In this document: piece after piece, positions 1-17,952 of the stretch | Numbering within the stretch: the first letter of the stretch is position 1 | Layout: each line of letters starts with the position of its first letter | IMG/VR virus record: IMGVR_UViG_3300048913_000097 | Origin: a virus | DNA length: 50,010 bases | Strand: one strand, 5' to 3' | The notes under the pieces: model-generated | What the model saw: only the letters and a program-made list of their open reading frames with translations | What the model was told of the DNA's origin: nothing | Databases searched by the model: none | Position numbers and translations under genes: made by a program

Positions 1-127
1 GTGCACCATGAACGCTCAAACATTAGCAGTGGACTTCACCAACATCGCACGCAAAGCCAAAGGCGTGGAAAGCGCCGCAAACGGGATGTTCTCGACCTTG
101 AAGGCTGAGGACGTTGCCGACCTGGGT
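1..127. repeat. Exact terminal duplication, copy 1 (identical to 49884..50010)
   Basis: Hand alignment: bases 1-127 recur base-for-base as the last 127 nt of the window. The non-redundant unit is 49,883 bp. Confidence 0.95.
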
Positions 128-574
128 CACTTCAACGAGGTGGTTCGGGACGCCTTCAAAATCAACGGGTGGAGTCAGACAGCGGGTCGCCCCGTGGCAG
201 GCTCGAAAGAGAAGCCAGCACCCGACGCAGTGAAACTCTACGTGTCAACCTTCCGAGCCGCTTACCGCCTGGGTCTTGACGTACTCAGCTTTGAGACGGT
301 CGGGGCGATGCGTACGACCATCCGTGAGATACGCGCAGCCTCGCACCAGCGCAAGCTTGCCGAGCCGCCAGCGCCGTCGCGCCCTGAGATGGAAGGTGTG
401 GACGTCAAAGGTCCCGACAGCCTCATAGGCGCCTTGTGGCATGATGCGATGCTACTCGCTGAGAAGATCCCCACCGATCATCAGCAAGAGATGGAACGCG
501 AAGTACGCATGGTTATGCAGCGGTTCCTTCGATTCGCACCACCTGAGCTCACACTGGTCCCTGCGGCGGCGTGA
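8..574 (+). CDS. Hypothetical protein, 188 aa (largest gene of plus-strand island I)
   Basis: Long ORF. GAGG lies 9 nt upstream of the ATG, visible in the duplicated copy (49878-49881, ATG 49891). No motif I recognise. Confidence 0.75.
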   Translation: MNAQTLAVDFTNIARKAKGVESAANGMFSTLKAEDVADLGHFNEVVRDAFKINGWSQTAGRPVAGSKEKPAPDAVKLYVSTFRAAYRLGLDVLSFETVGAMRTTIREIRAASHQRKLAEPPAPSRPEMEGVDVKGPDSLIGALWHDAMLLAEKIPTDHQQEMEREVRMVMQRFLRFAPPELTLVPAAA

Positions 575-585
575 TAATAATTATA

Positions 586-614
586 TTGACAGGCTCGTCA
601 TTATGATCCACAGT
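586..614 (+). promoter_or_regulatory. Sigma70-like promoter with variant dyad (TTGACA-N17-CACAGT)
   Basis: TTGACA 586-591, 17-nt spacer, CACAGT 609-614. TGACA-ggct-CGTCA (587-600) is a one-base variant of the TGACG-N4-CGTCA family. Confidence 0.45.
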
Positions 615-645
615 GACTCCATCGAACCCCAACCGATGGAGTCAC
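613..645 (+). promoter_or_regulatory. Perfect 12-bp stem / 9-nt loop hairpin covering the RBS of 650..862
   Basis: GTGACTCCATCG (613-624), loop aaccccaac, CGATGGAGTCAC (634-645). The 3' arm contains GGAG 638-641, 8 nt before ATG 650. Confidence 0.6.
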
Positions 646-649
646 AACC

Positions 650-862
650 ATGAAATACTTCCTGTCTGACATCGCTGGCACTGTTTACGAGATCGTCACC
701 GGTCAAAGTTTCACGCAGCGTCTGATCCGTCGCAAAGTCGGCAACGTGTTCCGTCGGTTGAAGGGTGAAGCGCCACGCCGGAGCTGGGAAGACGGTCGCG
801 TCAACAAACCAAGCGTCGAAGAATGTCAGCGACTGAAAGACGAAGCGGGGCGGTCGGTATGA
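650..862 (+). CDS. Hypothetical protein, 70 aa
   Basis: GGAG 8 nt upstream. The stop overlaps the next ATG (ATGA at 859-862). Confidence 0.65.
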   Translation: MKYFLSDIAGTVYEIVTGQSFTQRLIRRKVGNVFRRLKGEAPRRSWEDGRVNKPSVEECQRLKDEAGRSV

Positions 863-993
863 TCGCGCTACTGGCACTAAGGTTCTTCGTCCTGCGCGAG
901 AACAAGTCGACCAAACCCAAGCCTGTGTATCACCAGACGTGGCCTGACGAAGTCCCAGGTTATCCAGCATCCGCATACGTGAGGGGTTTATGA
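859..993 (+). CDS. Hypothetical small protein, 44 aa, hydrophobic N-terminus (MIALLALRFFVL...)
   Basis: Below the ORF-track cutoff. ATG 859 overlaps the upstream stop, and its own TGA (991-993) overlaps the next ATG 990. ATGA coupling on both sides. Confidence 0.5.
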   Translation: MIALLALRFFVLRENKSTKPKPVYHQTWPDEVPGYPASAYVRGL

Positions 994-1181
994 CTAACGC
1001 GACCATAACGTTCAAGGGTGCCAGTCGTGCGACGCTGTCAAAGATCGCACGTGACGCGCTCCAGGCTGCCGGGTTCGTGTGCAGCGACATGTTCTACAAC
1101 GACGCACATCAGAACGAGAGTTTCGTTGTGCAGAACCCACGTCGTACGATTAAGGACGCAGCGGCTGTTAAACCGCAATAG
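990..1181 (+). CDS. Hypothetical protein, 63 aa
   Basis: ATGA coupling to the upstream ORF. GAGGGG lies 5 nt upstream. The gene ends 14 nt inside the convergent gene 1168..1590. Confidence 0.6.
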
Positions 1182-1590
1182 CGCCCATGCCAGCGCGACG
1201 ACGCAGGCGATAGAACTGCTGACCGTACACTGTGAAGGTCAACCAGTCGTCGCCCACGTCCATCATCTTAGGTACCCGATACGCGATAGCCTCATCACCT
1301 ACTGACTTGCTGGCGACGTTCAACCGCGCCTCAGAGTTGGGATCAGCGGTCACACCGGTTGTGCCGTAGTTCGTCGCGAGCCAGTGCGCAGCGAAGTAGA
1401 ACATTCCACGCCGCTTGAAGTTGTGGCACTCGTCCTCGTACGCACCCCAGCGACTCGAACCCGTCTCGGCGTCAGCCTCGCACAATGCACAACTGATCAG
1501 CGCGTCGGGCCATTTGGTAACGTCGGAGAACGCGAAGAATTCAGCCCGGAAGCTGTCGATCATTGCCTGGGTGATGACCACGGTGGCCAC
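1168..1590 (-). CDS. Head-tail connector/adaptor, DUF4054-like
   Basis: The segment ...[11 protein letters not shown]...[13 protein letters not shown] resembles DUF4054 phage proteins (from memory). It sits at the end of the head module. The start is GTG 1590. An alternative GTG at 1581 has AGGAG 8 nt upstream. Confidence 0.7.
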
Positions 1591-1631
1591 TCCTATGTGT
1601 CGTTGCGCTACAGAATAGCATGACAGACGGT

Positions 1632-1666
1632 AAAAACCCCAGTCGCACCGGTTAAAGTGGCTGGGG
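1632..1666 (-). terminator. Candidate intrinsic terminator (minus strand)
   Basis: Minus strand reads CCCCAG-18 nt-CTGGGG followed by TTTTT. The loop is large, so the call is weak. Confidence 0.4.
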
Positions 1667-1815
1667 TAGGGGTTACGGTTTACTCAAACATCTCAGGCGC
1701 TTTGATCCACGTTGGCGCGATGATCTGGTCGCGAAGAAGGACGACCGCTAAACCTGTGATGCATTCCGAGCCGTAACGGCATTGCTGGCGCTGGTTGATG
1801 CAATTGACATTACCG

Positions 1816-2127
1816 TCACACGTTGACTTTGTCAATCTCGGTGCGGATCTTGTCGGCGTTCCAGGTTTTCTTGACGTCGATACCGAGCAGCAGCGCTTCG
1901 TTACGCAGCGCTTCGAGATTATCGTCGCCGTCGGTATCAGCCGGGGTCATGCGGGTCAGGTCGCCAGTATTGAGCAGGTTTTTCACGAAGTCGGATTTGC
2001 ACAGCTCATCCGGTACTTCGACCGCTGGGTTTTCACCGGGCTTGATGTCGAAGAATGTGGTGTAACCACCGTCGGTCATCGGGGCGTTGATGGTGATCAG
2101 TCGGCTCGAATTGTTTCGCAGCAGCAT
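1816..2127 (-). CDS. Hypothetical protein, 103 aa, with C-terminal HeH/SAP-like motif
   Basis: GAGG 9 nt upstream. The C-terminus LEALRNEALLLGIDVKKTWNADKIRTEI looks like a Rho-N/HeH helix-extension-helix motif. Confidence 0.7.
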   Translation of the reverse strand: MLLRNNSSRLITINAPMTDGGYTTFFDIKPGENPAVEVPDELCKSDFVKNLLNTGDLTRMTPADTDGDDNLEALRNEALLLGIDVKKTWNADKIRTEIDKVNV

Positions 2128-2155
2128 GTGGTGTTACCTCGTTTCAGGTTGGGAA

Positions 2156-2737
2156 TTATTGTACATCAGTTTTGCGGTAACCGGCGTCGTAGAGTGCTTG
2201 GCAGCCATCCTTGACGTGGCCTTCATAGTTCGACTTGTAGACCGCTGCCATTTCGTCGATTGCTTTCAGGCGCTCTTCCGCCGCGATCTGCTCAGGCGTT
2301 CGGATTGGGCGGAAAGAACAGTTTCGCGGATGATGAACGTGTTCACATTTATCACCACCGATGATTACAGTGCAGTCGCTAACGTAGCGAATATCACCAA
2401 CCGCCCATTGTCCTTCCGGTGACGGCGGTGAACTGTGTTTCATAAACTCACACACCGTCCCAACCGGCGGCAGTTCTTCGCCGTTCCATTCGGTAACCTT
2501 CGGCTCATTCACCGCATCAACTGCGACCTGCCATTCGGCGCGGGTGACGACCGGGTACGGGTCACGCTCAGAGTGATGAGTTTCAAGGTCAACTTTTGGC
2601 GCAAGCGAATGCGCCCCCATCGGATGATCTTCAGGAAAGCTTTGGTACAGCTCGTTATCAACCTGCGATTGAGTCAGCTGCTCAACACCTTCCGGCCACT
2701 CCTTCAGCTCTCGCGCCAAAATATCAATCAGTTTCAT
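2156..2737 (-). CDS. Hypothetical protein, 193 aa
   Basis: GGGAGGG 8 nt upstream of the ATG. It is the first gene after promoter 2773..2801. Confidence 0.8.
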   Translation of the reverse strand: MKLIDILARELKEWPEGVEQLTQSQVDNELYQSFPEDHPMGAHSLAPKVDLETHHSERDPYPVVTRAEWQVAVDAVNEPKVTEWNGEELPPVGTVCEFMKHSSPPSPEGQWAVGDIRYVSDCTVIIGGDKCEHVHHPRNCSFRPIRTPEQIAAEERLKAIDEMAAVYKSNYEGHVKDGCQALYDAGYRKTDVQ

Positions 2738-2772
2738 ATCCGCAACCCTCCCAAACTGTTATGTGTCGGGTA

Positions 2773-2801
2773 ATCCTGCACCACTGTGACGAGTCCGTCA
2801 A
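2773..2801 (-). promoter_or_regulatory. Operator-promoter: TTGACG-N17-CAGGAT with TGACG-N4-CGTCA dyad (2787-2800)
   Basis: Minus strand reads TTGACGgactcgtcacagtggtgCAGGAT. It lies directly after the capsid-gene terminator. Confidence 0.5.
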
Positions 2802-2813
2802 TACCCGAGCATG

Positions 2814-2833
2814 AAAAACCCGCCGAAGCGGGT
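2814..2833 (-). terminator. Intrinsic terminator after the major capsid gene
   Basis: Minus strand reads ACCCGC-ttcg-GCGGGT followed by TTTTT, 14 nt after the capsid stop. Confidence 0.75.
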
Positions 2834-2846
2834 CAATCATTACACC

Positions 2847-3878
2847 TTAGATCGAGTCACGGTAAGCCGCGCTGAACGGGTAGCGGAACTCCACGCCGGA
2901 CAGCTTGTACTCGGCAGGGATGAACACGTTCAGGCCGCGCATTTGTGGAGCCAGTGCGCGCCATGGGATCGGGTTCACCATGCCCAGGTTTTCGTCGTTC
3001 AGTTCGTACGCCAGCATACGATCCTTCGAGCCGTTCGACACGCCACCGATGGCGAGTTGAGCGGCGGACAGTTGCAGGCGTGGAACCACGCGCAGCGCCT
3101 GACCGGTGAGGTTGGTGTACAGGTTGTTGCGCAGGAAGAACTCCAGCACGGTGGTGTCAGTACCGGTTTCCATACGTTTGGTGGAGATGAACGAGTAACG
3201 CGCCGAGTCCATGACCAGAACGTTCGGAACGTGCACGTTGGCCGAGTTGATCCATACCTTAGTCAGCAGGGTGTTCATGTCCTGAACGATCTGGTTACCA
3301 GTGGTGGCGGCGTTGTACCAGTCGACAGTCGACGAATCGAGTGCCAAGTTGGCGTTATTGAACAGACCGGTCATCTGGCGAGAGGCGTCACCGAAGTAAG
3401 CCACGCGCTGGGTGTGTTCCTGCGAACCACGGAATGCCGCCTGAGCCTTGGTGGTGTCCAGCGGGATACGCAGTTGCTGGGACTTACGCAGCTCGTCCAG
3501 GCTGTAATCGTAGCTGTTACCAGCGTAGCCGATTGGCACCGAGGACTTGTTTGCAGCGATGGCAACGTTCGGCAGGTCATCGGCGCTAGAACCGATGAAT
3601 TTACCAATGGTGACCGCGTCGTACGAGATGTAATCCCACGAATCGGCCCATTCAGGAACGTTCGTGTTGATTGGTACCAGTTCAGCAAAGCTGATCGCGG
3701 TGTATTTCGACTGATAAATCTTAGCTTCAAGATTCGCCAGTTGCGAAATGTAGAACGCCAGACCATCGTCCACGGTCGGGAGACCGTCAGTGAACGTAAT
3801 CTGGTGACCTTTTGGCAGACCGTTGCGCTCAGCGTATGCGTCAGCTACGGCTACAGAAATCTTAGTGCGCTGAGTCAT
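2847..3878 (-). CDS. Major capsid protein (DUF2184-type)
   Basis: 343 aa. LAFYISQLANLEAKIYQSKY...ELVPI...DDLPNV matches my recollection of the DUF2184 capsid family. It follows the scaffold and decoration genes and is followed by a strong terminator. Confidence 0.88.
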   Translation of the reverse strand: MTQRTKISVAVADAYAERNGLPKGHQITFTDGLPTVDDGLAFYISQLANLEAKIYQSKYTAISFAELVPINTNVPEWADSWDYISYDAVTIGKFIGSSADDLPNVAIAANKSSVPIGYAGNSYDYSLDELRKSQQLRIPLDTTKAQAAFRGSQEHTQRVAYFGDASRQMTGLFNNANLALDSSTVDWYNAATTGNQIVQDMNTLLTKVWINSANVHVPNVLVMDSARYSFISTKRMETGTDTTVLEFFLRNNLYTNLTGQALRVVPRLQLSAAQLAIGGVSNGSKDRMLAYELNDENLGMVNPIPWRALAPQMRGLNVFIPAEYKLSGVEFRYPFSAAYRDSI

Positions 3879-3880
3879 GA

Positions 3881-4378
3881 TCAGCCCCCAATGTTCAGAG
3901 TGATTTTAGCCAGCGCACCGGCACCTGCCGAACTGGTCCATTTGGCGTCCGGCACTTGAACGGCCAGGGTCGCAGCAGCGCCGACAACGTTCGAGAACTG
4001 ACCCTGGTTAGTACCAGTACCATCGCCGATGACCACCCATACCGGGTCGTCTTTGGTTACGGCCACACGGGCAGTTACCCATATCTCGCCGCTGGTAACA
4101 ACGGTCATGTCGCGCTTAGCGGTGGCGCCTACCACATCGGTAGCTGTGTAAGCGCGATTCAGTTCACGCTTGATCACGCCGATGAAGTTCGCAGCGGTCG
4201 AGGTCGATACGGGTAATTTCGCACCGTCATCACCATCGGTCACTACGCCTAGGCCGAACGCAAGGTTCACCGTACCCTTGTTGAGCTTCGATACGCTGTT
4301 CAGCAGTTGGAACCCGGTGGAGACCATGCCCGCATACGCGACGCCGTGGTTAATCGCATTGCCGCCTTGTACGCTCAT
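3881..4378 (-). CDS. Head decoration/cement-like protein
   Basis: 165 aa, Gly/Ala/Thr/Val-rich, lying between the scaffold and capsid genes. The stop of the upstream gene overlaps its start. The family assignment is tentative. Confidence 0.6.
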   Translation of the reverse strand: MSVQGGNAINHGVAYAGMVSTGFQLLNSVSKLNKGTVNLAFGLGVVTDGDDGAKLPVSTSTAANFIGVIKRELNRAYTATDVVGATAKRDMTVVTSGEIWVTARVAVTKDDPVWVVIGDGTGTNQGQFSNVVGAAATLAVQVPDAKWTSSAGAGALAKITLNIGG

Positions 4379-5517
4379 TGCTGCGCTCCTTTCCAGGCGT
4401 TGGCCTGAGATTCTTTGTAGGTGGTGTACGCGTCGGCGACCGGTACGCTGTCAGCGGTAGACTTGCCCGACGCGTCCTTGGCCAGAGCCAACAACTGACT
4501 CAGCACGGTCGCGGTGTCACCGGTAACAGTTGTCGTGACATCAGTTCCGGTCGGCTCGGCTTCAGCAGCCATGTCGAACGATGCCTGAATGTACGCCGGG
4601 GACTTCGCAGCCCAGTCAACGGATGGACGCTTGACCAGCAGAGCGGCGCGCATCACTTCGGTCGGGTCGACGCTGTCGCAGGTGAACGCATCGCCAGCCA
4701 CTTTACGAGCGGTGGTGTTCAGCGCACCCAGGGCGGCCACACGGGACTTGATCGCGTCGTCGCTGCCCAGCGCCAGAGCGGCGGACAATTTCTCGGCGTT
4801 ACCGTCGGCAGTCGCTTGAGCTTTCTCGGCGGCAGCTTCAGCAGTGGTTGCGCGCAGGGTGAGTCGGTCGAACGCGTCGGCGACTACCTGAGCATTTGCA
4901 GGATCAGCAACATCAACGCTGCGCCCGCTATCAGTGGTAATGAGTACAGGCATTGTGTTGCCTCCAGAGTGGGTATGGTCGAACACACGGGCTTGAGAGC
5001 CCGCTCTAGCATTATACACAGCCGCGACATGGTTGATCTTAATGTCGGTTTGAGTGTAATCGTAGGGCTCACCCTCGGGTGTGATACCCGGAGTGTCATC
5101 GTAAACGGCGGTATAGCCAGATGATAGTTCGCACTTGCCCGCGTTGATCGCGTTGATCGCGTCAGCATCCTGAAAAATCAGATCGCATTTAACGAAATCG
5201 CCATCCTGCACACCGACACCACGGACGACGCCGACGGCGACCTTCTTGTAATTGGTGCTATTAACAAGGCCCGCAGGGTGGTCAATGGTGATTACCGCAC
5301 CGTCAAACGACGATAGGGATTCGCTTTTAAACACCTCGGAAGGTGGGCGATACACACGGACAACCCGATTCGGGTCACCGGGCAAACCCAGTTCGCGTGC
5401 GAGATATTCTTGAATACCGGTGCGGGCGACACGGCCTGGAACGCGCAAGAAACCCTCGTCAGTATACTCACGATGGGTGATTTTATGGCTTGCGCGATCA
5501 TTGATGGTCAGTAGCAC
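4375..5517 (-). CDS. Scaffold / prohead core protein (DUF2213-type)
   Basis: The N-terminus YTDEGFLRVPGRVARTGIQEY...VRVYRPPSEVF...ITIDHP is characteristic of DUF2213. The Ala-rich C-terminal half is predicted helical. GTG start. Confidence 0.8.
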   Translation of the reverse strand: MLLTINDRASHKITHREYTDEGFLRVPGRVARTGIQEYLARELGLPGDPNRVVRVYRPPSEVFKSESLSSFDGAVITIDHPAGLVNSTNYKKVAVGVVRGVGVQDGDFVKCDLIFQDADAINAINAGKCELSSGYTAVYDDTPGITPEGEPYDYTQTDIKINHVAAVYNARAGSQARVFDHTHSGGNTMPVLITTDSGRSVDVADPANAQVVADAFDRLTLRATTAEAAAEKAQATADGNAEKLSAALALGSDDAIKSRVAALGALNTTARKVAGDAFTCDSVDPTEVMRAALLVKRPSVDWAAKSPAYIQASFDMAAEAEPTGTDVTTTVTGDTATVLSQLLALAKDASGKSTADSVPVADAYTTYKESQANAWKGAQQ

Positions 5518-5546
5518 GGTGTCAGCCTATGAATGTGACTGCACGC

Positions 5547-5574
5547 ATACTATCACGACGTTACGGATTATCAA
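5547..5574 (-). promoter_or_regulatory. Possible sigma70 promoter re-starting transcription into the scaffold gene
   Basis: Minus strand reads TTGATA-N16-TAGTAT, inside the last codons and 3' flank of the HNH gene. Confidence 0.3.
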
Positions 5575-6385
5575 ACTTGTTGCGTTTCGCAAAATTGTCT
5601 TCAGCCCATAACGGTTGAAGGTTGGATAATGCGTTCACGATGGCTGGATCGGTGACACCTTCAGCAACAAAAAGCGATACGGGTCGGATGTGGTCGATGT
5701 GCCAATCACCGTAGTTCGACCAACTCATCCCGCCGGTGAAAAGGGATGTCATGTAATCCATTAATTCGATACCGGTGTAGCCGAGTAGTGTGCTTGATCG
5801 ACCAACCTTCCGATTCTGACCCGCCGCCAGTACTCGTTTGAGCATATTGCGAGCTGCTGTCGCGGCTTTGTATCCCGGGTCAGTTGCGTAACGCCGACGT
5901 TGGTTTTCAACATTCTTCGCGATCATGTGAGAACGATTCGTCTGGTGGTAATCGGCCTTCATCGCTTTGTAATCTGGGCATAACCGCTTCAATGTCATGC
6001 AGTCGAGGCACTGGTTATTCGCCGTAGATCGCTCACCCCTATGACCCCGCTTGCACAGCACACCTTCGTTGTAACGGGTTAGACTCTGGGCGAGTGCATC
6101 AACTCGCGAGACGAATAACTCACCCACCGCGATACGATTTTGTTCGGCTTTATCTTTACGCCTGTCGGCTCGTGCCTGGGCTTGTCTTGCACGTCCGGCT
6201 TTGTAGACTTCGCCTTTGCGATACTCGACACCCATTTGTTTTGTTTCGTTGAGTGCATCGTACTCGCGCTTGATCTGGTTTTTACACGACTTACAGCGAT
6301 TATCAACCCCGCGTCCACACTTCTTGTTTCTGTGGAATTCCGTCAACGGTTTTTCGATACCGCATTTCACGCACGTCTTTGTCAT
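5561..6385 (-). CDS. HNH homing-endonuclease-like protein
   Basis: The C-terminus HIDHIRPVSLF...NLQPLWAEDNFAKRNK is an HNH motif. The N-terminal half carries CxxC...CxxC zinc-ribbon repeats. The start is set at ATG 6385, which has GAGGGCGGG upstream. The longer track ORF (to 6616) would cover the plus-strand promoter and gene. Confidence 0.85.
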   Translation of the reverse strand: MTKTCVKCGIEKPLTEFHRNKKCGRGVDNRCKSCKNQIKREYDALNETKQMGVEYRKGEVYKAGRARQAQARADRRKDKAEQNRIAVGELFVSRVDALAQSLTRYNEGVLCKRGHRGERSTANNQCLDCMTLKRLCPDYKAMKADYHQTNRSHMIAKNVENQRRRYATDPGYKAATAARNMLKRVLAAGQNRKVGRSSTLLGYTGIELMDYMTSLFTGGMSWSNYGDWHIDHIRPVSLFVAEGVTDPAIVNALSNLQPLWAEDNFAKRNKFDNP

Positions 6386-6432
6386 TGATCCCGCCCTCGC
6401 AATATTTACCAAACAATAACGTGTGCGAAGGG

Positions 6433-6461
6433 TTGACGCAACTTGTATCGACTGACAATAT
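6433..6461 (+). promoter_or_regulatory. Sigma70-like promoter TTGACG-N17-CAATAT
   Basis: TTGACG 6433-6438, CAATAT 6456-6461. It points into 6492..6791. Confidence 0.5.
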
Positions 6462-6474
6462 GACGAAAACGTCA
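6461..6474. promoter_or_regulatory. TGACG-aaaa-CGTCA dyad placed at the -10/+1 of promoter 6433
   Basis: Exact palindrome. This is the only copy not fused to its own -35. Confidence 0.55.
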
Positions 6475-6491
6475 ATGAGGTGACATCAACG

Positions 6492-6791
6492 ATGGAAGGT
6501 ATGAAATTTGATAGCGGGAAACCGCTGATGAGCCTCATCCCGGCGAGAGCAGAAACGGCAATGGCTGAGGTTTTGACGTTTGGTGCGACGAAGTATGGTC
6601 CCGACAACTGGCGCAAAGTTGCGAATGGTGACCAACGTTACTTGGACGCGCTCATGCGCCACGTGAACTCACATCGACGGGGCGAGCTTCTGGACAGTGA
6701 GACCGGTCTCCCTCACCTTGCGCACGCGATGTGCTGTGTGGCGTTCCTGTTGGAGCTGCAACTCAACCCTTACCCTCCTGAAACGCCTTAA
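6492..6791 (+). CDS. dATP/dGTP pyrophosphohydrolase-like protein (DUF5664-type)
   Basis: KFDSGKPLMSLIP...VLTFGATKYGPDNWRK...RHVNSHRRGELLDSETGLPHLAHA matches the DUF5664 phage family as I recall it. The start is ambiguous (GTG 6480, ATG 6492, ATG 6501). Confidence 0.7.
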   Translation: MEGMKFDSGKPLMSLIPARAETAMAEVLTFGATKYGPDNWRKVANGDQRYLDALMRHVNSHRRGELLDSETGLPHLAHAMCCVAFLLELQLNPYPPETP

Positions 6792-7542
6792 CCTTCGAGT
6801 CCGGGACAGCGATTGCGATGCACCTGCATTGATAATCGCTACCCGGCTGAATTGGTTCACCCTTGTCGCTGAGCGGCAAATCGCTCCAGGCGTATACGCC
6901 CTTGCCGAATTCCGTCACCTTGTCCGCGATTTCACGGTGGCGATGGCGCACGCGTTGGTCATGACTGTCGACCCAGCGGAAGTACGAAAATCCTGCAGCG
7001 GTCTGTTTACGCTTATTCAACTCGCCTTGCACTTTGGCATGTTGATCGCGTGCAATCATTTTCGCCCGACGCGCCGTAACGCCGAATTGCTCGCTCAACG
7101 CCTTCTCGATGAACGACGGTCGCATACCGGCGCGCATATTCGCCATGACGATGTTCGACACTTGTTCCAGGTACTGCGCAGGAATCGACGTGATGAGCGT
7201 GGCGTTCTGATAGGTCGCTGCGTCGAGATAGTTGCGCGCCTGTTGCGAGTTGCTAAACACGTCGATACCGAACGACTGTCGCCCACGTGAATTCACACGC
7301 ATCTGTGACTTTACGAACTCCGACGCGATTGATTCGGCTGCTTGACGTGCGGGAGGGGAGAGCCACTTACCGAGCAGGAATTGTAACGCCCTGGCGATGG
7401 TGTCGGCCCAGCCGTCCAGTGTCGGCGTCGAGTCCTGAACGTATTCAGGCGCGTACTGTTTCACGAGCGGAACGATCACCTCGTCGATGTCTTTCCTCAC
7501 CGCCCGGGCGATTCGCTGAAGTGCTGCGTTATATCGAACCAT
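6763..7542 (-). CDS. Head morphogenesis protein (SPP1 gp7 / Mu F-like)
   Basis: 259 aa lying between the portal and scaffold genes. ...YFRWVDSHDQRVRHRHREIADKV... is typical of this family. No SD is visible upstream. Confidence 0.82.
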   Translation of the reverse strand: MVRYNAALQRIARAVRKDIDEVIVPLVKQYAPEYVQDSTPTLDGWADTIARALQFLLGKWLSPPARQAAESIASEFVKSQMRVNSRGRQSFGIDVFSNSQQARNYLDAATYQNATLITSIPAQYLEQVSNIVMANMRAGMRPSFIEKALSEQFGVTARRAKMIARDQHAKVQGELNKRKQTAAGFSYFRWVDSHDQRVRHRHREIADKVTEFGKGVYAWSDLPLSDKGEPIQPGSDYQCRCIAIAVPDSKVKAFQEGKG

Positions 7543-7545
7543 GTG

Positions 7546-7574
7546 TTGACGAGTCCGTCAGAAGGGGTTACAGT
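7546..7574 (+). promoter_or_regulatory. Operator-promoter: TTGACG-N17-TACAGT, dyad 7547-7560
   Basis: TTGACGagtccgtcagaaggggtTACAGT. It points into 7607..8193. Confidence 0.55.
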
Positions 7575-7606
7575 TCGGTTCACATTAACACAACGGAGCG
7601 ACACCC

Positions 7607-7831
7607 ATGCATCACAACGAACTGGTAATCGGCGACAAAGTCAAAGTTGTTTGTGTAAACACGCGTCATCCCCATGAACTCGCATATCGCATCGGTGAGA
7701 TCGGCATTGTCGTAAAAATCGAGGATGACGATACGTGCCAGAACGTGAAATTGGCAATGGACGATGGTGAGGATCTGTACATCTCGACGTTCGAACTTGT
7801 CGCCCGGGCCAAATGGGAGCACGTGCAATGA
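7607..7831 (+). CDS. Hypothetical protein, 74 aa
   Basis: GGAG 8 nt upstream. The gene is antisense to the surrounding late genes. Confidence 0.7.
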   Translation: MHHNELVIGDKVKVVCVNTRHPHELAYRIGEIGIVVKIEDDDTCQNVKLAMDDGEDLYISTFELVARAKWEHVQ

Positions 7832-8193
7832 CCCCAACACTCGAAACGATGCTGGCTGAGTGGCGCGACCTTGAAGCACGTGCCAAGGCGGCACAGGCTG
7901 AAGCCGACGCACTGTTTGAACACGCCGGTCAATGTCACGGTGAGATCGTTGTGCGACTCGCTGAACTCGGTTGGGGTGCGCCACGTGGTGAGCCGGTTGT
8001 GACGCTGGATGACAGCGACGGGTGGATCGAGTGGAACGGTGGTAAACGACCTGTACACCCTCTTCAAATCGTCGATGTCCGTTTACGTGACGGTGACGAG
8101 AAATTCGGATATAGCGCCAATAACTGGGGGTGGGGTCACGAGCGGGACGATTATATCGTCGCCTACCGTCTCACCCCATCAACACAGCCATAG
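7828..8193 (+). CDS. Hypothetical protein, 121 aa
   Basis: ATG 7828 overlaps the upstream stop (ATGA). The gene ends 23 nt inside the convergent portal gene. Confidence 0.7.
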   Translation: MTPTLETMLAEWRDLEARAKAAQAEADALFEHAGQCHGEIVVRLAELGWGAPRGEPVVTLDDSDGWIEWNGGKRPVHPLQIVDVRLRDGDEKFGYSANNWGWGHERDDYIVAYRLTPSTQP

Positions 8194-9559
8194 CCGAATC
8201 GTGTGATACACCGTCGCGGGTCAGGGCGGTGTACGCACTCATGAACGCGTCAGTCGATAACGCTGGCGCTTTCTCTTCAACAACCGGTTCAGCAGGCATG
8301 TTCGGTTCCTCCAACCCTTCAAGTTCCTCGATGTCCTCGTCGTTGAACTGATACGCCTCTTCAGCCTGGAGACGGCGCTGAATCTGACTCACTTGAACCA
8401 CACTCGCGTCGAGATACGCGATATCCGTATCAGCACGCAGCTTCGCGGCTGTCGCCATCGCCACAGTGTCGGGCTGATCGAGTGGGTTCCAGACGTAGTT
8501 GTAATCCTCCGGCCAGTACCCCAGCGCTGAACGTACCAACACCTGATCGAGTGAGCGTAGGCCCGGGTCGAGCTGCGTCAGTTGTTTCGAGCGGATCGAA
8601 TTCTTGTAGTTGGTGTTGTCACCCTCACCGGTGGCGTTGAGCCCTTTGGCAGACGTACCGAACAGTCGAGTGACAGGAATGTCGGCGGCACCACTGATCC
8701 ACGTCATCAACGTTTCAAGCACCGGGGCAACCCCGGCGAGGTCCAGGGTCTTACGGTCGTACGTCTCTTCACCGTCGAGCAACGCCATCTGCACGAGCGA
8801 CTTCATCTGACTGAACAGGGTGTAACGGTCGATGATCGCCGAGTCCTGATCACTCGCCAATTCGTCGCTCAACCCCACACGGGTGATCACATCGACGTTC
8901 GCTTCCTGCATCAGCTCAGCGATACCGTCCTTACTCGCGACGATGTCCATAATGTCTTCGAGACACTTGCGCAGTTCCGAGTCGCCCCAACCTTGCGTCT
9001 GTGCACGTTGACGACGTGGCAGCTTAGCGCCCATGAACCGCGCAAAGTGTGACCAATGAACCTGTTGTCCACCACCGTTGATGGTGTAGAACTCCGGTTC
9101 GAGGTAATTCGCTGCCAGGACGTTCCAGGTGTTGAGCGTCATCGCTTGCATATCGAAGCGGTCGAACACGATCACACGTTGCAAGTCACCCTTGCGCACC
9201 GCGTTCAGGTTGAGCGGTTTGGTCAAATCTTGACCGGTAATCATGAGAATGCCGCCACCACCGTACAGACGTGCCCAGCTCAGCGCCTCGTTGCAGTCCA
9301 TCGGGATGTGGAGGCGATCCTCTTCGGCGCGGATCTCGTCAGCACCGTCACACTTGATCGTACGCCACTCACGCGTCATGTCCTCAGCGGGAATATCGAC
9401 GATCTGGCGGGCTAGCCAACTGGTAGTATAGGCCGCGTCCCAGCTCGCCCAGTTGTTAAGGACTGAGTAGCAGAACTGGTTGTGAGACCGCTTAGCCTTC
9501 GAGGTGCCGAGACCGGAAGCGACGTTAACAAGTCCGTCGGTAGTGGCTGGTAAAGTCAT
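8171..9559 (-). CDS. Portal protein (DUF1073-type)
   Basis: 462 aa, lying next to the terminase genes. The N-terminus ...DGLVNVASGLGTSKAKRSHNQF... and the overall size fit DUF1073 portals. Confidence 0.88.
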   Translation of the reverse strand: MTLPATTDGLVNVASGLGTSKAKRSHNQFCYSVLNNWASWDAAYTTSWLARQIVDIPAEDMTREWRTIKCDGADEIRAEEDRLHIPMDCNEALSWARLYGGGGILMITGQDLTKPLNLNAVRKGDLQRVIVFDRFDMQAMTLNTWNVLAANYLEPEFYTINGGGQQVHWSHFARFMGAKLPRRQRAQTQGWGDSELRKCLEDIMDIVASKDGIAELMQEANVDVITRVGLSDELASDQDSAIIDRYTLFSQMKSLVQMALLDGEETYDRKTLDLAGVAPVLETLMTWISGAADIPVTRLFGTSAKGLNATGEGDNTNYKNSIRSKQLTQLDPGLRSLDQVLVRSALGYWPEDYNYVWNPLDQPDTVAMATAAKLRADTDIAYLDASVVQVSQIQRRLQAEEAYQFNDEDIEELEGLEEPNMPAEPVVEEKAPALSTDAFMSAYTALTRDGVSHDSAMAVLMG

Positions 9560-9560
9560 G

Positions 9561-9589
9561 TTGACGAACCCGTCATAGTGTCATATGCT
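9561..9589 (+). promoter_or_regulatory. Operator-promoter: TTGACG-N17-TATGCT, dyad 9562-9575
   Basis: TTGACGaacccgtcatagtgtcaTATGCT. The -35 begins 2 nt from the portal ATG on the other strand. Confidence 0.6.
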
Positions 9590-9626
9590 CCAGTGTATCT
9601 TAAACGTGGCACAGAGGGGAAACATC

Positions 9627-9986
9627 ATGGGTGACAACAACGTAACACTTGACAAGCGTGATCTGTTCGATGCGGTGCGATCAGCTATCAAAGACGCAAT
9701 GCTTGAACAGGGTAGCCGTGAAGACGGTGTCGAACTGTTCGAGGATGCTACGGATCGGACCAACAAGTGTTTATCGGAACTCTACGCTTCGTTACCTGAC
9801 GGGTTCACCGTCGGTCAGGTGTTGAAATGTGTAGCGATTCCTGATCGTCACGACGGGTATTTCACTATTGGTCGGGAATACATCGTTGTGAGCGTAGATC
9901 TAGACGATGACGAATTACCGCTTAAAATGACCTGTGATACAGCCATCACGCTGTGGTGTGAGGCCGAAGCATTCGTAGCGTCATAA
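9627..9986 (+). CDS. Hypothetical acidic protein, 119 aa
   Basis: GAGGGG 7 nt upstream of ATG 9627. The track ORF starts earlier, at 9585, without an RBS. The gene ends 6 nt inside the convergent TerL gene. Confidence 0.7.
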   Translation: MGDNNVTLDKRDLFDAVRSAIKDAMLEQGSREDGVELFEDATDRTNKCLSELYASLPDGFTVGQVLKCVAIPDRHDGYFTIGREYIVVSVDLDDDELPLKMTCDTAITLWCEAEAFVAS

Positions 9987-15322: not shown

Positions 15323-15351
15323 ATTATTATCCATAATGACGAGACCGTCAA
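15323..15351 (-). promoter_or_regulatory. Operator-promoter: TTGACG-N17-AATAAT, dyad 15337-15350
   Basis: Minus strand reads TTGACGgtctcgtcattatggatAATAAT, directly after terminator 15365..15392. Confidence 0.55.
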
Positions 15352-15364
15352 TACGCGGGCAAAT

Positions 15365-15392
15365 AAAAACCGCCGTTAGCGACGGGCGGTTT
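15365..15392 (-). terminator. Intrinsic terminator
   Basis: Minus strand reads ACCGCC...GGCGGT followed by TTTTTATTT. The stem overlaps the stop of 15376..15810. Confidence 0.65.
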
Positions 15393-15810
15393 CAAACTGT
15401 ATCGCCAGCTCACCCAGGCGACGAACGTCAGCCTTACTCGGGCCGTTGTAATAGGTCGTACACCCGGCACCAGCCATACGCTGCACCTCGGCGTTCTGGA
15501 GTAACGACGTGTCACGTGCCGCCTGACACTCGACAGTCTGTCCACCGACGTTCATACCGACCTGTTGCACCGTCACGAGACACACCTCAGCAATCGCCAC
15601 AGTTTGCCGTGTGAGTTCCCCGACGCGAGTACCGTCACAGTCCGTGGCACCAGCAGCACCTGTCACACAGAGAGCCAGTGCGAACACCACACCGCGTACT
15701 GCATTACCTGTCTTACACATTGGTCGATCCTCGTCGTCTACATCCCATTGATAGCCACACGCGTGGCAGTGGTACTGATCGCCATACCGGCGCGCCTTAC
15801 ACATGGTCAT
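15376..15810 (-). CDS. Hypothetical protein with N-terminal zinc ribbon and one TM-like segment
   Basis: CKARRYGDQYHCHACGYQW is followed by VVFALALCVTGAAGA. Start options are GTG 15813, ATG 15810 and ATG 15804. Confidence 0.68.
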   Translation of the reverse strand: MTMCKARRYGDQYHCHACGYQWDVDDEDRPMCKTGNAVRGVVFALALCVTGAAGATDCDGTRVGELTRQTVAIAEVCLVTVQQVGMNVGGQTVECQAARDTSLLQNAEVQRMAGAGCTTYYNGPSKADVRRLGELAIQFETARR

Positions 15811-15827
15811 CACCCTCGGTAGTTGGT

Positions 15828-15862
15828 ACTGACTCAGCCCCAGTTAAGGGGCTTGATGTGGG
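15828..15862 (-). promoter_or_regulatory. Conserved 35-nt hairpin element, copy 1 (sense on minus strand)
   Basis: The reverse complement cccacAtcaAGCCCCttaactGGGGCTGagtcagt matches 49781..49815 at 33/35 positions. It has a 6-bp stem, a 6-nt loop and no U-tract. Confidence 0.8.
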
Positions 15863-15871
15863 AGTGGTTGG

Positions 15872-16006
15872 TTAGGCTTCGCCTGCAATGATCCATGCTG
15901 CCCAGCGGCGCGCAGCCTTCAGGCAATACGCTTGTTCTTCAGTGTCGTTGCAGCCTTCGTTCAGGCACATAACAAAGTAGGCTAGGGTTCGGGCGTTATC
16001 ACTCAT
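15872..16006 (-). CDS. Hypothetical small protein, 44 aa
   Basis: Below the track cutoff. GGAG 9 nt upstream of ATG 16006. It is the first ORF after promoter 16041..16069. Confidence 0.45.
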   Translation of the reverse strand: MSDNARTLAYFVMCLNEGCNDTEEQAYCLKAARRWAAWIIAGEA

Positions 16007-16037
16007 CTCGTCTTACTCCGTTGTTCGTTTCGATGGG

Positions 16038-16235
16038 TTAATCATCTCGCGAAATGACGGACTCGTCAATATTTAATTTACGGTCCTGACGATTCGACCC
16101 GACCAACGGTAATTGCCCGTCCGATAAATGCCAGGGGATCTCGGTTTTACAGTCGGGACATTGCTTCATATTCAGCGAGCTATACCGTATCAGATCGGTA
16201 CACCCGCACTGCGGACACGACGTGTGAGCGTTCAC
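16038..16235 (-). CDS. Zinc-ribbon protein, 65 aa
   Basis: CPQCG...CPDC. GTG 16235 overlaps the upstream stop (GTGA), with GGAGG 5 nt upstream. Confidence 0.6.
   Translation of the reverse strand: MNAHTSCPQCGCTDLIRYSSLNMKQCPDCKTEIPWHLSDGQLPLVGSNRQDRKLNIDESVISRDD
16041..16069 (-). promoter_or_regulatory. Operator-promoter: TTGACG-N17-GATGAT, dyad 16055-16068
   Basis: Minus strand reads TTGACGagtccgtcatttcgcgaGATGAT. It lies within the last codons of 16038..16235. Confidence 0.5.
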
Positions 16236-16438
16236 TGACGCCTCCACATGCCGCCGATGAAATCGAGAGTCCCGGCGTAAACCTCGTCCTGTTCCTGCTC
16301 GGTCATTGTGCGACCCGGACACACAGTGGGTAACGAACCCTCACCACCTTTACATGTGGTACACGACGCAAGGCCACCCTCACAAAACTGACATCCGTTG
16401 CAGCCATCGGGGCATTTGTACAGAGTATGATTATTCAT
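16232..16438 (-). CDS. Cys-rich protein, 68 aa (CxxCxGxG-like)
   Basis: CPDGCNGCQFCEGG...CTTCKGGEG. ATG 16438 overlaps the upstream stop. Confidence 0.6.
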   Translation of the reverse strand: MNNHTLYKCPDGCNGCQFCEGGLASCTTCKGGEGSLPTVCPGRTMTEQEQDEVYAGTLDFIGGMWRRQ

Positions 16439-16649
16439 TATCGCGCCAATCCTTCCTGTTGGGGTTGTAGTTACATTGTCCCGAGCCCTGACGGTGGATG
16501 AACCAGTAACCATCACAGTGACAGGCCACACGTGAGTTCATCCATGCATCGAGTCGATACTCGCCGCCACATTTGCAACGACGAGACGTCGGCCACCGCG
16601 CCAGGGCTTTACGGGCGTCACACTTGCGACATCCGGTGTGGGTGCTCAT
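16431..16649 (-). CDS. Cys-rich protein, 72 aa
   Basis: CRKCD...CKCGG...CHCDG. ATGA overlap with the upstream gene. Confidence 0.62.
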   Translation of the reverse strand: MSTHTGCRKCDARKALARWPTSRRCKCGGEYRLDAWMNSRVACHCDGYWFIHRQGSGQCNYNPNRKDWRDNE

Positions 16650-16834
16650 GCCGGCGGTGGAATAATCGGCGGCGGTGACATTATTTCAAGTGCTTCGCTA
16701 ATCGCAACCAGAAAATCGTACTGACTCATCTCGTTAATCAGACGCTCGGCGTATCGATCAGGATCGCCCAATTCGTGCTTACGAGCCTGAAATTTCATCC
16801 AGTCGGTTACGGTTTCAAGCAGTGTGGTAGTCAT
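16646..16834 (-). CDS. Hypothetical protein, 62 aa
   Basis: Translationally coupled chain (ATGA overlaps on both sides). Confidence 0.6.
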   Translation of the reverse strand: MTTTLLETVTDWMKFQARKHELGDPDRYAERLINEMSQYDFLVAISEALEIMSPPPIIPPPA

Positions 16835-17106
16835 CGCCCCTGCCTCAAGTCAGCCAGTTTACGAGTGAGATCCATGCTCGCCCGGGTAGCAGCGGCGTGC
16901 TCACGTTGGGCGCCCGACATCTCGTACAGTGGGTCATTGCATTCAGAGCATTTACGCCGGTCATGCTCTACGCGGATAAACAGCATCGCACACGAGCCAC
17001 GCAGGCACTGTACCGGCCCTTTACGGGCCGCCCGCAACGCCTTGAGCGCTTTCATCGTGCGAGCCAGTTCGATAAGTGTTTGATCGATTGTATGGTCTTG
17101 GATCAT
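16831..17106 (-). CDS. Hypothetical protein, 91 aa
   Basis: Coupled chain. Contains C...CxxC. Confidence 0.62.
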   Translation of the reverse strand: MIQDHTIDQTLIELARTMKALKALRAARKGPVQCLRGSCAMLFIRVEHDRRKCSECNDPLYEMSGAQREHAAATRASMDLTRKLADLRQGR

Positions 17107-17357
17107 TTGAGTAGCTCCCGTATACGTGCAGTCATTTGTTTTCTGAGTTCTTGATTTGTCAAATATCCATCTTCACCGACCGTCTCAAATGCATGTCTCC
17201 ACACCTCTTCTGCCAACGCCTCGACCTCATCCTCTCGCACGAGTCCCACGCGCTTAACGTCGATCCAACCGTGACCGAATGGTGGCGGTTGGTGATTCCA
17301 CAGCAGCGCCACCTGACCCGGGTTGCAACACGTGTAAATAAACGCTACGGGTTTCAT
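17103..17357 (-). CDS. Hypothetical protein, 84 aa
   Basis: GGGAGTG upstream of the ATG. Coupled chain. Confidence 0.62.
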   Translation of the reverse strand: MKPVAFIYTCCNPGQVALLWNHQPPPFGHGWIDVKRVGLVREDEVEALAEEVWRHAFETVGEDGYLTNQELRKQMTARIRELLK

Positions 17358-17360
17358 CTG

Positions 17361-17504
17361 TCACACTCCCATCAGTACGAGAACGAACCCAACCCATCCG
17401 ACGAGCGCAACGCCGCGCATCACGTTGAGTCGAGCCTGGAGGATGTCCACGGTGGTCTCAGCCGCCCGTGCCCGGTTGTACCAAATCGCTGTGAGCTGTT
17501 TCAT
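17361..17504 (-). CDS. Hypothetical small membrane protein, 47 aa
   Basis: Below the track cutoff. ATG 17504 overlaps the upstream stop (ATGA). The C-terminus VALVGWVGFVLVLMGV is hydrophobic. Confidence 0.45.
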   Translation of the reverse strand: MKQLTAIWYNRARAAETTVDILQARLNVMRGVALVGWVGFVLVLMGV

Positions 17505-17695
17505 GGTGCAGATACCTCGTACGTGAACTGGCGAGCGGTGTCACCCATTACCCAACGTTCGGTCGCAACGTGTTTGCCGTCGGAGTAATAGCACGCGATC
17601 CCGTGGGTCCGACCAACGTCACGTCCCACAACCAAATCGTCTTCCGAGATTGCCCGGATAAACGCGTCGAACTCATCTTGTTTTACCTGTCGCAT
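17501..17695 (-). CDS. Hypothetical protein, 64 aa
   Basis: ATG 17695 has GGGAGCGGGG upstream. It is the first gene after promoter 17734..17762. Confidence 0.6.
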   Translation of the reverse strand: MRQVKQDEFDAFIRAISEDDLVVGRDVGRTHGIACYYSDGKHVATERWVMGDTARQFTYEVSAP

Positions 17696-17733
17696 CAGCC
17701 CCGCTCCCACGTGTGTTAATTGATGTCATGACC

Positions 17734-17762
17734 AGTATTAGCCATCCTGACGAGTCCGTCAA
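17734..17762 (-). promoter_or_regulatory. Operator-promoter: TTGACG-N17-AATACT, dyad 17748-17761
   Basis: Minus strand reads TTGACGgactcgtcaggatggctAATACT, directly after terminator 17775..17830. Confidence 0.55.
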
Positions 17763-17774
17763 TACCTCAGGAAT

Positions 17775-17830: not shown

Positions 17831-17952
17831 TGGTGTGTGACCGGTGCTGATCTCCGGTTTATTCAACTCTAGCCGCTCGGTCATTTCGATTGCTCGATTG
17901 CCGACCACTTTGAACTATGGCGTCGCGTATCAACCTACGCATTCACACCGCG

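Follow-up and report, generated by a model that had tools for sequence, protein, structure and literature searches.

A palindromic promoter heads six mostly antisense gene islands among the late genes of a Jedunavirus- and Yokohamavirus-related myophage

The IMG/VR virus record IMGVR_UViG_3300048913_000097 (50,010 nucleotides; hereafter the window, meaning the whole stretch of DNA analysed) carries phage late genes on its minus strand, and these are interrupted by six gene units, islands I to VI, which lie mostly antisense to the late genes and share one type of promoter. Positions 49884-50010 repeat positions 1-127 exactly, so the window represents a myophage genome of 49,883 bp, either circular or with terminal redundancy, and an Island I that wraps around its ends is legitimate. 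Megablast returned matches of 72-76% nucleotide identity, confined to the portal and TerL genes, in Klebsiella Jedunavirus phages (JustaPhage, Geezett, IME346) and Edwardsiella Yokohamavirus phages (PEi21, MSW-3, PVN06), and protein-level synteny with JustaPhage and PEi21 extended over primase, helicase, polymerase and the entire head/tail module. Judged by these comparisons, the phage is a distant relative of both genera, whose myophages measure 43-50 kb, and it appears virulent. In a review (PMC8472413), Jedunavirus, Yokohamavirus, Peatvirus and Pantoea phage AAM22 fall together in a single terminase clade. For comparison, we collected 31 IMG/VR loci around portal homologues, 11 of them close (portal 91-98% identical in amino acids) and 20 at about 70%; together with JustaPhage and PEi21 they make up the 33 related genomes referred to below. 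Rfam at gathering score gave no match, and no tRNA or tmRNA was detected in the window. The genes of the islands are:

49649-49771, plus strand: I-1, a 40-aa open reading frame (ORF) with a GGAG Shine-Dalgarno (SD) sequence, absent from related locus L006
8-574 (repeated at 49891-50010...), plus strand: I-2, 188 aa, all-helical
650-862, 859-993 and 990-1181, plus strand: I-3, I-4 and I-5, small ORFs coupled by ATGA overlaps
2737-2156, minus strand: II-1, 193 aa, phrog_3483, an accessory gene
2127-1816, minus strand: II-2, 103 aa, phrog_10035
6385-5561, minus strand: HNH/endonuclease VII-like gene of Island III, phrog_1035 (4.5e-29), on the same strand as the late genes
6501-6791, plus strand: dGTP_diPhyd_N gene of Island III (formerly DUF5664; dATP/dGTP diphosphohydrolase N-terminal domain; Pfam 7.9e-34)
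7607-7831 and 7828-8193, plus strand: IV-1 and IV-2
9627-9986, plus strand: V-1, 119 aa, an ORFan
38672-38869, 39000-39137 and 39140-39373, plus strand: VI-1, VI-3 and VI-4
38866-39003, plus strand: VI-2, 45 aa, RMF-like (PF04957; Pfam 1e-10)

The promoters that stand before them are:

49586-49614, plus strand: Island I promoter, TTGACGAACCCGTCA followed by the -10 hexamer TAATAC/AATACT
2773-2835, minus strand: Island II terminator-promoter cassette after the major capsid protein (MCP) gene, a hairpin and T-run followed by TTGACGGACTCGTCA (2787-2801); family D3
6461-6475, minus strand: promoter core of the HNH gene, TTGACGTTTTCGTCA, with a poor -10 hexamer
7546-7574, plus strand: Island IV promoter, TTGACGAGTCCGTCA, with a 17-nt spacer between -35 and -10 and the hexamer TACAGT
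9561-9589, plus strand: Island V promoter, TTGACGAACCCGTCA, with a 17-nt spacer between -35 and -10 and the hexamer TATGCT
38580-38640, plus strand: Island VI terminator-promoter cassette, GCCCGGTTCGCCGGGC and T5 followed by TTGACGGATTCGTCA, a 16-nt spacer and TACAGT

The island promoters share the core TTGACG-N4-CGTCA, in which a palindrome spans the -35 box. Thirteen exact copies of this core are present in the genome, against about 0.02 expected for 11 specified bases. Its arms, TGACG and CGTCA, occur 13 times at a spacing of 4 and not once at spacings of 0-3 or 5-8, and the next commonest palindrome of the same 5-4-5 form reaches three copies. Six of the copies head the islands (49586+, 2801-, 6475-, 7546+, 9561+ and 38613+). 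The other seven (15337..31899; 15351-, 16069-, 17762-, 22357-, 25475+, 27834+ and 31885+) lie in early/replication arms that encode primase, helicase, methylase, exonuclease, polymerase and other proteins. Every copy faces a start codon, which follows, behind an SD sequence, at 56-67 nt from the -35 box in 11 cases and at 90 and 106 nt in the remaining two (59-90 nt downstream for the six island copies), and 11 of the 13 have a -10-like hexamer (TACAGT, TAATAC, TAGGAT and others) 16-17 nt past the -35 box. Conversely, every plausible TTGACG/-10 promoter in the genome bears the palindrome. The likeness between island and replication copies continues downstream, with near-duplicate 5' untranslated regions (5'UTRs) at promoters 49586 (ahead of I-1) and 16069, an early promoter, and again at 7546 and 15351. 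Just upstream of four copies (2801, 15351, 17762 and 38613), a G+C hairpin with a T-run completes a repeated terminator-promoter unit, family D3.

The first-pass annotation of this DNA had described late genes interleaved with self-promoted, mostly antisense units of one promoter type, and this description was borne out, with exact sites at all six islands. Its assignment of a TTGACG-type promoter to each unit was right at the six island heads, where the motif is in fact the more specific TTGACG-N4-CGTCA, and wrong for the plus-strand gene of Island III, which lacks the palindromic promoter. Six units with a shared promoter also do not form the pattern of a single moron, as had been noted. What had to be given up is the idea that the islands form a special class of their own: the same promoter drives seven early/replication units, which suggests that the islands are outposts of the early regulon and belong to the temporal class of the replication genes, and the arrangement recurs throughout the clade (see below).

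The island ORFs are real genes rather than shadow ORFs. Their codon-usage scores are positive, they carry SD sequences and ATGA start/stop coupling, and two have Pfam matches (dGTP_diPhyd_N and RMF) and six have PHROG matches; the HNH gene (5561-6385) gave no Pfam match at E<0.01. Between the window and L006, substitutions in I-2 to I-5 concentrate at third codon positions, with 6/5/37 at the three positions of I-2. A minus-strand ORF of 169 aa in the same region (581-1090), considered as a gp20-like structural gene, was rejected, as its substitution phase (16/23/22) shows no third-position pattern. The islands have a GC content of 0.49-0.57 (late genes 0.555), and the HNH gene is the only endonuclease-type gene among the 16 island genes. 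I-2 has no Pfam or PHROG match and 46 unnamed homologues or clusters. Its AlphaFold2 model (pLDDT 82) is all-helical and found no fold match in the PDB; the sole match of the model was an uncharacterised protein of Pseudomonas phage PPpW-3. A distant I-2 homologue (35% identical; L050, 5001-5558) lies in a helicase/single-stranded DNA-binding protein/exonuclease module of another phage type, which supports an early timing of the islands.

Gene re-calling also reproduced the six islands with the coordinates and convergent overlaps first reported. I-5 overlaps the DUF4054 gene by 14 nt (1168-1181), the dGTP_diPhyd_N gene overlaps the MuF-like gene by 29 nt (6763-6791), IV-2 overlaps the portal gene by 23 nt (8171-8193) and V-1 overlaps TerL by 6 nt (9981-9986), and the end of VI-4 abuts the hub gene stop exactly (39373/39374). 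The gene that Island I runs into is thus the gp10-like DUF4054 gene and not, as had been thought, the connector gene. No intrinsic terminator was found on the plus strand after islands I, V and VI, in agreement with the earlier reading; Island IV departs from it, with one weak candidate 54 nt past its end (8247-8269). Island II does lie between terminators, a strong one upstream (about 2815-2835) and a weak hairpin with a T-run downstream, after II-2 (1632-1665, minus strand), and a terminator-like hairpin with a T-run also precedes the Island VI promoter (38580-38600). Genome-wide, terminator-like matches occur at the frequency expected from shuffled sequence. Past each island end the plus strand is richer in C than in G (ratios 1.17-1.46), which we took as fitting Rho. 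Because the antisense cassettes have no intrinsic terminators, early RNA would be expected to run on antisense into the 3' ends of the late genes.

The late genes and control regions around the islands are:

1168-1581, minus strand: gp10-like (DUF4054) gene, the last gene of the head late unit, probably starting at GTG 1581
2847-3878, 3881-4378 and 4375-5517, minus strand: MCP, virion protein and prohead protease genes, the first two with normal SD sequences
6763-7542, minus strand: MuF-like gene, its ATG 3 nt from the palindrome and without an SD sequence
8171-9559, minus strand: portal gene, its ATG 1 nt from the palindrome and without an SD sequence
9981-11372 and 11356-11901, minus strand: TerL and TerS genes
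11975-12250: regulatory repeat copy A, 10 CGGGGTA boxes upstream of TerS
37761-38477 and 39374-40807, minus strand: spike and baseplate hub genes, flanking Island VI
38523-38537: imperfect palindrome TTGACAGTCACGTCA, kept in all close relatives
48636-49121, minus strand: neck gene
49160-49420: regulatory repeat copy B, 8 CGGGGTA boxes upstream of the neck gene

The two regulatory regions are the only copies of a repeat of about 290 bp, in which CGGGGTA/TACCCCG boxes in both orientations surround an AT-rich centre; five further boxes lie elsewhere in the genome. Each copy is followed by a sigma-70-like core. The repeats are probably late control regions that define two late units, and could also represent a pac or origin element. 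With one copy before TerS and the other before the neck gene, Island I falls between late units and the gap around it need not be transcribed through. A further dyad, TTGACAGTCACGTCA, overlaps a minus-strand promoter-like site, CTGTCA-16-TATCAT (38502-38533), about 50 nt before the spike gene, and the conservation of this site suggests that the baseplate cluster may have a separate promoter. Hence, the single morphogenesis operon proposed at first is better replaced by several transcription units, as the neck/tail genes, and probably the baseplate genes, have control regions of their own upstream. The gaps of about 420, 630, 900 and 1900 nt that late mRNA was thought to contain were confirmed in size (421, 628, 896 and 1930 nt), with the reservation that the largest need not be part of it. 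Islands V, IV and III alone lie clearly within a late unit.

The start regions of the portal and MuF-like genes bear on how these three islands are crossed. No SD sequence or promoter fits before either gene, and the decoration and MCP genes have ordinary SD sequences. The MuF start codon adjoins the dyad, with no SD sequence, in all 33 related genomes, PEi21 included, and the same holds for the protease gene in Jedunavirus-like genomes and for ORF38 in PEi21. Three possible solutions found no support. Late mRNAs that begin without a leader, at the portal or MuF ATG itself, were rejected, there being no -10-like hexamer at the right distance. Late promoters within islands IV and V were not supported, the one late-strand match (9/12, 7757-7728) being at chance level, although promoters of a non-sigma-70 type may be present. 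A special initiation hairpin before the two start codons is not indicated either: the dyad folds at -5.3 to -5.5 kcal/mol, no better than shuffles (local folds against shuffles: z = +0.95, -1.52, -0.35 and -0.10), and the count of G·U against A·C at arm position 5 across loci (10 vs 2) is too small and not limited to late regions. Since the portal and MuF starts leave no room for a promoter or SD sequence, late RNA most probably continues across islands V and IV and over the HNH gene.

The dyad marks comparable positions across the clade. JustaPhage contains 12 exact palindromes, including copies before its antisense blocks, and PEi21 contains 13 TGAC-N6-GTCA dyads against 0.66 expected. The published annotations show opposite-strand blocks in the same part of both genomes (portal, HNH, MuF, eight small genes, protease in JustaPhage; TerL, endonuclease, portal, ORF5, MuF, ORF7-10, protease in PEi21) and also in their neck and tail regions. 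In nearly all 31 IMG/VR loci, a dyad lies antisense directly (2-3 nt) before MuF, likewise in JustaPhage and PEi21. Other positions are specific to sub-clades, with dyads before the portal gene in the window clade and before the protease gene in Jedunavirus-like genomes. Convergent junctions are tight throughout, with overlaps of +4 to +29 nt or gaps of less than 30 nt, and the 6-nt overlap with TerL is kept across relatives though the overlapping ORF differs. Taken over these genomes, the interleaved arrangement characterises the Jedunavirus/Yokohamavirus-like clade as a whole and is not peculiar to the window genome.

The content of the slots, by contrast with this frame, is exchanged. Slot contents were compared by tblastn and blastn; single-linkage ORF clustering was discarded, its family 'F0' being an artefact of fused ORFs that joined IV-2, II-1 and JustaPhage gp4, which are not homologous. 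When close relatives are compared by blastn, the matching blocks take in the late genes as well as the promoter with its 5'UTR, and break at the island start codon and at the stop of the neighbouring late gene. In slot V, an identical promoter, 5'UTR and SD sequence are followed by at least six unrelated first ORFs, and slot IV holds four types. The replacement boundaries are thus exact, with the conserved promoter and 5'UTR as left arm and the 3' end of the adjacent late gene as right arm, and one promoter/dyad serves replication units and islands in an architecture shared by the clade. Seven of the 16 island proteins (I-1, dGTP_diPhyd_N, IV-1, V-1, VI-1, VI-3 and VI-4) have no homologue in the 33 related genomes, and homologues of I-2 to I-5 are limited to close relatives among them. 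A cassette has also moved between slots, as seen from the II-1 family (start MKLI(D/E)(I/L)LARELKEWP): in 20 relatives it is the first antisense gene of the slot between portal and MuF, and in the window it lies in sense orientation between the MCP and gp10-like genes, under promoter 2801. HNH homologues were found in two slots and in both orientations.

Slot length varies accordingly, from 17 to about 3200 nt overall, from 17 to about 1200 nt between TerL and portal and from 760 to about 2800 nt between MuF and protease. Six loci (L013, L016, L019, L021, L027 and L030) have only 17-32 nt between TerL and portal, against 421 nt in the window. All close relatives have an Island VI, its content varying between them, and more distant ones lack it; in the latter, hub and spike lie 20-160 nt apart (about 20 nt in L045) against 896 nt in the window, and tail-region islands occupy different junctions in the three genera. 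The alignment of relatives, which had been suggested as a check on whether the islands are insertions, agrees with that view in so far as island ORFs are replaced or absent where late genes are conserved, which sets the islands apart from structural core genes. It does not for II-2, which lies on the sense strand next to the DUF4054 gene in all three genera and is, being so conserved, a core gene and not an island gene.

Several observations concern neighbouring parts of these genomes. A homologue of the RMF-like VI-2 lies at 1942-2061 in L032, in the early region upstream of TerS, so the location of this gene varies in the clade. The packaging module is mosaic: TerL is interrupted by an insertion of about 1.1 kb in L008 (726-3242; possibly an intron, intein or endonuclease), TerL of L009, L010 and L012 has no detectable similarity to that of the window beside a 91-97% identical portal, and TerS identity across the clade is only 48-61%. 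In L005-L007, L010-L012 and L032, a complete palindromic promoter (TTGACGAGGCCGTCA, 17-nt spacer, TACAGT; for example L006, 6278-6292) is embedded, in antisense orientation, in the coding sequence of the protease. About 236 nt separate it from the protease start and about 285 nt from the first island ORF downstream, and an RNA leader made from it would cover the protease initiation region in antisense; the window equivalent (5292-5306) is degenerate, with two mismatches. Early genes of the window include a C-5 cytosine DNA methylase domain protein (21549-22298, minus strand), a Rv2179c-like 3'-5' exoribonuclease domain protein (28836-29360, plus strand) and, in the early arm, a 112-aa protein with an Acb2/Tad1 hairpin domain (29360-29698, plus strand; PF24729, 3.9e-16), likely an anti-CBASS/anti-Thoeris nucleotide sponge. 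Between the tail-completion and sheath genes, a 741-aa ORF (45299-47524, minus strand) without a Pfam match or a homologue in JustaPhage or PEi21 is, by this comparison, an extra large late-strand gene specific to the window lineage.

One gene of the window encodes a candidate binder of the palindrome:

21221-21505, minus strand: 94-aa protein with a TetR_N-only helix-turn-helix (HTH), candidate palindrome-binding regulator

This protein scored 32.5 bits against TetR_N (PF00440; cut-off 24), with only residues 8-50 matching, and its best matches to solved TetR-family repressors reached E ~1e-4. The C-terminal ligand-binding/dimerisation domain, which brings TetR proteins to a total of about 190-210 aa, is not present. 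It is the only HTH protein recognised by Pfam among 30 non-island proteins scanned, its gene lies downstream of the palindromic promoter 22357, and it is conserved as JustaPhage gp71 and PEi21 ORF63; co-variation between protein and dyad is weak and covers three genomes only. The RutR box, bound by a TetR-family protein of E. coli, is TTGACCAnnTGGTCAA and has a TTGAC-N6-GTCAA frame (PMC2475637). These features suggest that the dyad may be an operator, with the 94-aa TetR-type protein as the best candidate binder.

Taken together, we consider it probable that the six islands are exchangeable early accessory-gene cassettes held in fixed slots between late genes, in a manner that resembles the promoter early stem-loop (PeSL) cassettes of T4-type phages. 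Under this interpretation, the host sigma-70 RNA polymerase would fire all 13 promoters early. Antisense placement would keep early transcription from entering the structural genes in sense, and the two same-strand units would instead be insulated by terminators and/or weak -10 boxes. Early RNA would enter the 3' ends of TerL, portal, MuF, DUF4054 and hub genes until Rho or an oncoming polymerase stops it. Late transcription would begin at the CGGGGTA regions before TerS and the neck gene and read through islands V, IV and III, unopposed once a TetR-type protein bound at the palindrome has shut the early promoters. Finally, recombination in the promoter/5'UTR and late-gene arms would shuffle accessory genes among co-infecting relatives, even between slots.

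A number of points weigh against this interpretation. Timing, promoter strength, the extent of antisense RNA and late read-through are all inferred from sequence. Promoters 2801 and 6475, the same-strand pair, have poor -10 hexamers. No palindromic promoter precedes the dGTP_diPhyd_N gene (6501-6791, plus strand), the TTGACG at 6573 falling within the gene itself. The TetR-like assignment consists of one domain match and a three-sequence comparison, a host factor could bind the palindrome instead, and a requirement for a hairpin would conserve the right arm equally, the left arm being the -35 box. Rho polarity could readily affect portal and MuF genes that have no SD sequence and follow hundreds of untranslated nucleotides, and late read-through may therefore depend on antitermination. 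The conserved site before the spike gene indicates that at least some late blocks further downstream may have promoters of their own, and undetected non-sigma-70 late promoters may lie within islands V and IV. With regard to the dGTP_diPhyd_N gene, the sole promoter-like site available is TTGTCA-16-AATATT (6379-6406, plus strand), which overlaps the start codon of the HNH gene (6385, minus strand). In that case the 5' ends of this divergent gene pair would overlap; otherwise, the HNH insertion would have displaced the original island promoter.

A stronger version would make the dyad a genome-wide switch and a gate for convergent transcription: the ligand-less TetR-type protein, itself produced from one of the 13 promoters, would bind all 13 sites, end head-on transcription at islands V, IV and III and thereby permit late read-through, with the arms serving as recombination handles. 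We regard this version as doubtful. If true, early shut-off would be coupled to the dosage of late genes (the SD-less portal and MuF, and protease-MCP), and the clade would be trading early accessory genes, probably for host takeover or anti-defence, between slots.

Alternatively, the function might reside in the RNA, with antisense promoters producing anti-late RNA against stray early-infection expression of the portal, TerL, MuF, protease and hub genes, and the ORFs being secondary passengers. The antisense units do end inside late genes without intrinsic terminators, the protease-internal antisense promoter of close relatives would lay its leader over the protease initiation region, and early antisense RNAs over structural genes are known from phage PAK_P3 (PMC4933390). 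However, the island ORFs are under purifying selection where this is testable and have SD sequences, coupling and recognisable families. Overlaps with late genes amount to only 0-29 nt, at their 3' ends, and untranslated run-on RNA would likely be shortened by Rho. In the tail region, moreover, the slots differ between genera and so offer no conserved specific late target. Overall, an RNA-level function appears improbable.

We judged it rather improbable that the islands are unrelated selfish insertions (homing endonucleases, morons) in tolerated sites, with a shared promoter that reflects host polymerase preference and no operator. Such an origin would fit the HNH/endonuclease VII-like gene in slot III, the endonuclease genes annotated between TerL and portal in PEi21 and between portal and MuF in JustaPhage, the preponderance of ORFans among island genes, and the relatives that lack Island VI or the island between TerL and portal. 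Yet host sigma-70 requires neither TTGACG over TTGACA nor a CGTCA 4 nt further on, and 13 of 13 copies have both. The palindrome stays fixed 2-3 nt before MuF even where MuF is only about 50% identical, the promoter and 5'UTR belong to the conserved backbone and not to the variable insert, and an endonuclease accounts for just one of the 16 island genes.

The palindromic promoters could also form a middle or delayed class that depends on a phage activator, the islands being co-expressed with replication and partly with late genes. A palindrome can serve an activator as well as a repressor, the -10 hexamers are of moderate quality, and the imperfect palindrome before the spike gene overlaps the -35 box of a site that faces the spike/baseplate genes. 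In 11 of 13 copies, however, the -35 TTGACG, the 16-17-nt spacer and TAnnnT are near the sigma-70 consensus; no other repeated promoter-like motif was noticed that could serve a separate immediate-early class, and a site centred on the -35 box and spacer occupies the classical position of a repressor. This renders a middle class very improbable. Last, the notion that the plus-strand island ORFs are shadow ORFs of a GC-rich genome and the gaps long untranslated spacers, to which the many spurious ORFs of at least 100 aa on both strands and the several island ORFs without a homologue might lend colour, is almost certainly wrong, given the third-position substitution bias in favour of the plus-strand frames, the SD sequences, ATGA coupling, Pfam and PHROG matches and 46 I-2 homologues, and the constant distance from promoter to start, and it is effectively refuted for I-2 to I-5, II-1, the HNH and dGTP_diPhyd_N genes, IV-1, IV-2 and VI-2, and less securely for I-1, V-1, VI-1, VI-3 and VI-4.

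One early promoter/putative operator motif, two late control regions and defined slots amount to a testable transcription map for a clade that includes Klebsiella Jedunavirus phages under development for therapy. The TerL, portal, MuF and protease slots tolerate replacement of whole ORFs, which makes them natural landing pads for payloads, and they are places to seek host-takeover or anti-defence functions. Start codons that adjoin the dyad make SD-less translation and head-on transcription a concrete question. A PeSL-like principle outside the T4-type phages suggests that promoter-cassette shuffling is a more general route of genome plasticity. In the papers searched on Jedunavirus, Yokohamavirus and Peatvirus, we found no description of promoters or antisense blocks.

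The arrangement can be set against four known systems. The phage dyad shares with the RutR box a 16-bp extent and the outer frame TTGAC-N6-GTCAA, and the phage encodes a TetR_N-type HTH protein; the inner positions, by contrast, are G/C in the phage and CCA/TGG in RutR, and the phage protein has 94 aa and no ligand-binding domain. Morons, known from lambdoid and other phages, are additional genes placed among late genes and flanked by a promoter and a terminator of their own. Like morons, the islands are extra, variable, non-structural genes between genes that are adjacent in relatives, each unit with its own promoter. Unlike morons, they number six and have one promoter in common with the replication genes, a promoter that belongs to the backbone and not to the insert; five are antisense and without terminators, only the same-strand Island II being bracketed by them, and the phage, which appears virulent, offers no prophage expression context.

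In T4, early 'anti-late RNA' is transcribed antisense to late genes, with a proposed role in holding down leaky expression of these genes. Measurements in Pseudomonas phage PAK_P3 showed early transcripts that lie antisense to structural genes (PMC4933390). Early-class transcription against late structural genes is common to both phages and, by prediction, to the window. The difference is that antisense RNAs were measured there and are predicted here, and that the units in the window are protein-coding operons of which only the run-on is antisense.

The closest counterpart is the PeSL of T4-type phages, a repeated sigma-70 early promoter whose stem-loop either overlaps the -35 box in some cases or stands just upstream as a terminator (Arbiol et al. 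2010, PMC2839356; Comeau et al. 2014, PMC4122927). PeSLs directly precede ORFans, a few of them inside virion modules, and mark breakpoints of indels and replacements between close relatives; their proposed role includes preventing early transcription from spilling into late/virion genes (PMC2839356, PMC4122927). The window resembles them in its near-identical, multi-copy sigma-70-like promoter, in the ORFans behind it and in the breakpoints at cassettes. As to the stem-loop feature, the palindrome lies over the -35 box at 13 of 13 copies and an upstream hairpin at four of 13, and a 5-bp RNA hairpin would be weak. Recombination between PeSL cassettes forms mini-circles that are encapsidated. 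PeSL stem-loops vary in position and sequence, whereas the palindrome in the window is short (5-bp arms), invariant in sequence and spacing, and operator-like. Its cassettes are systematically antisense within the late operon, with the -35 box adjoining the next late start codon. As the window clade is unrelated to T4-type phages, being of about 50 kb and Jedunavirus/Yokohamavirus-like, the islands are best described as PeSL-like in their working rather than as members of the described set.

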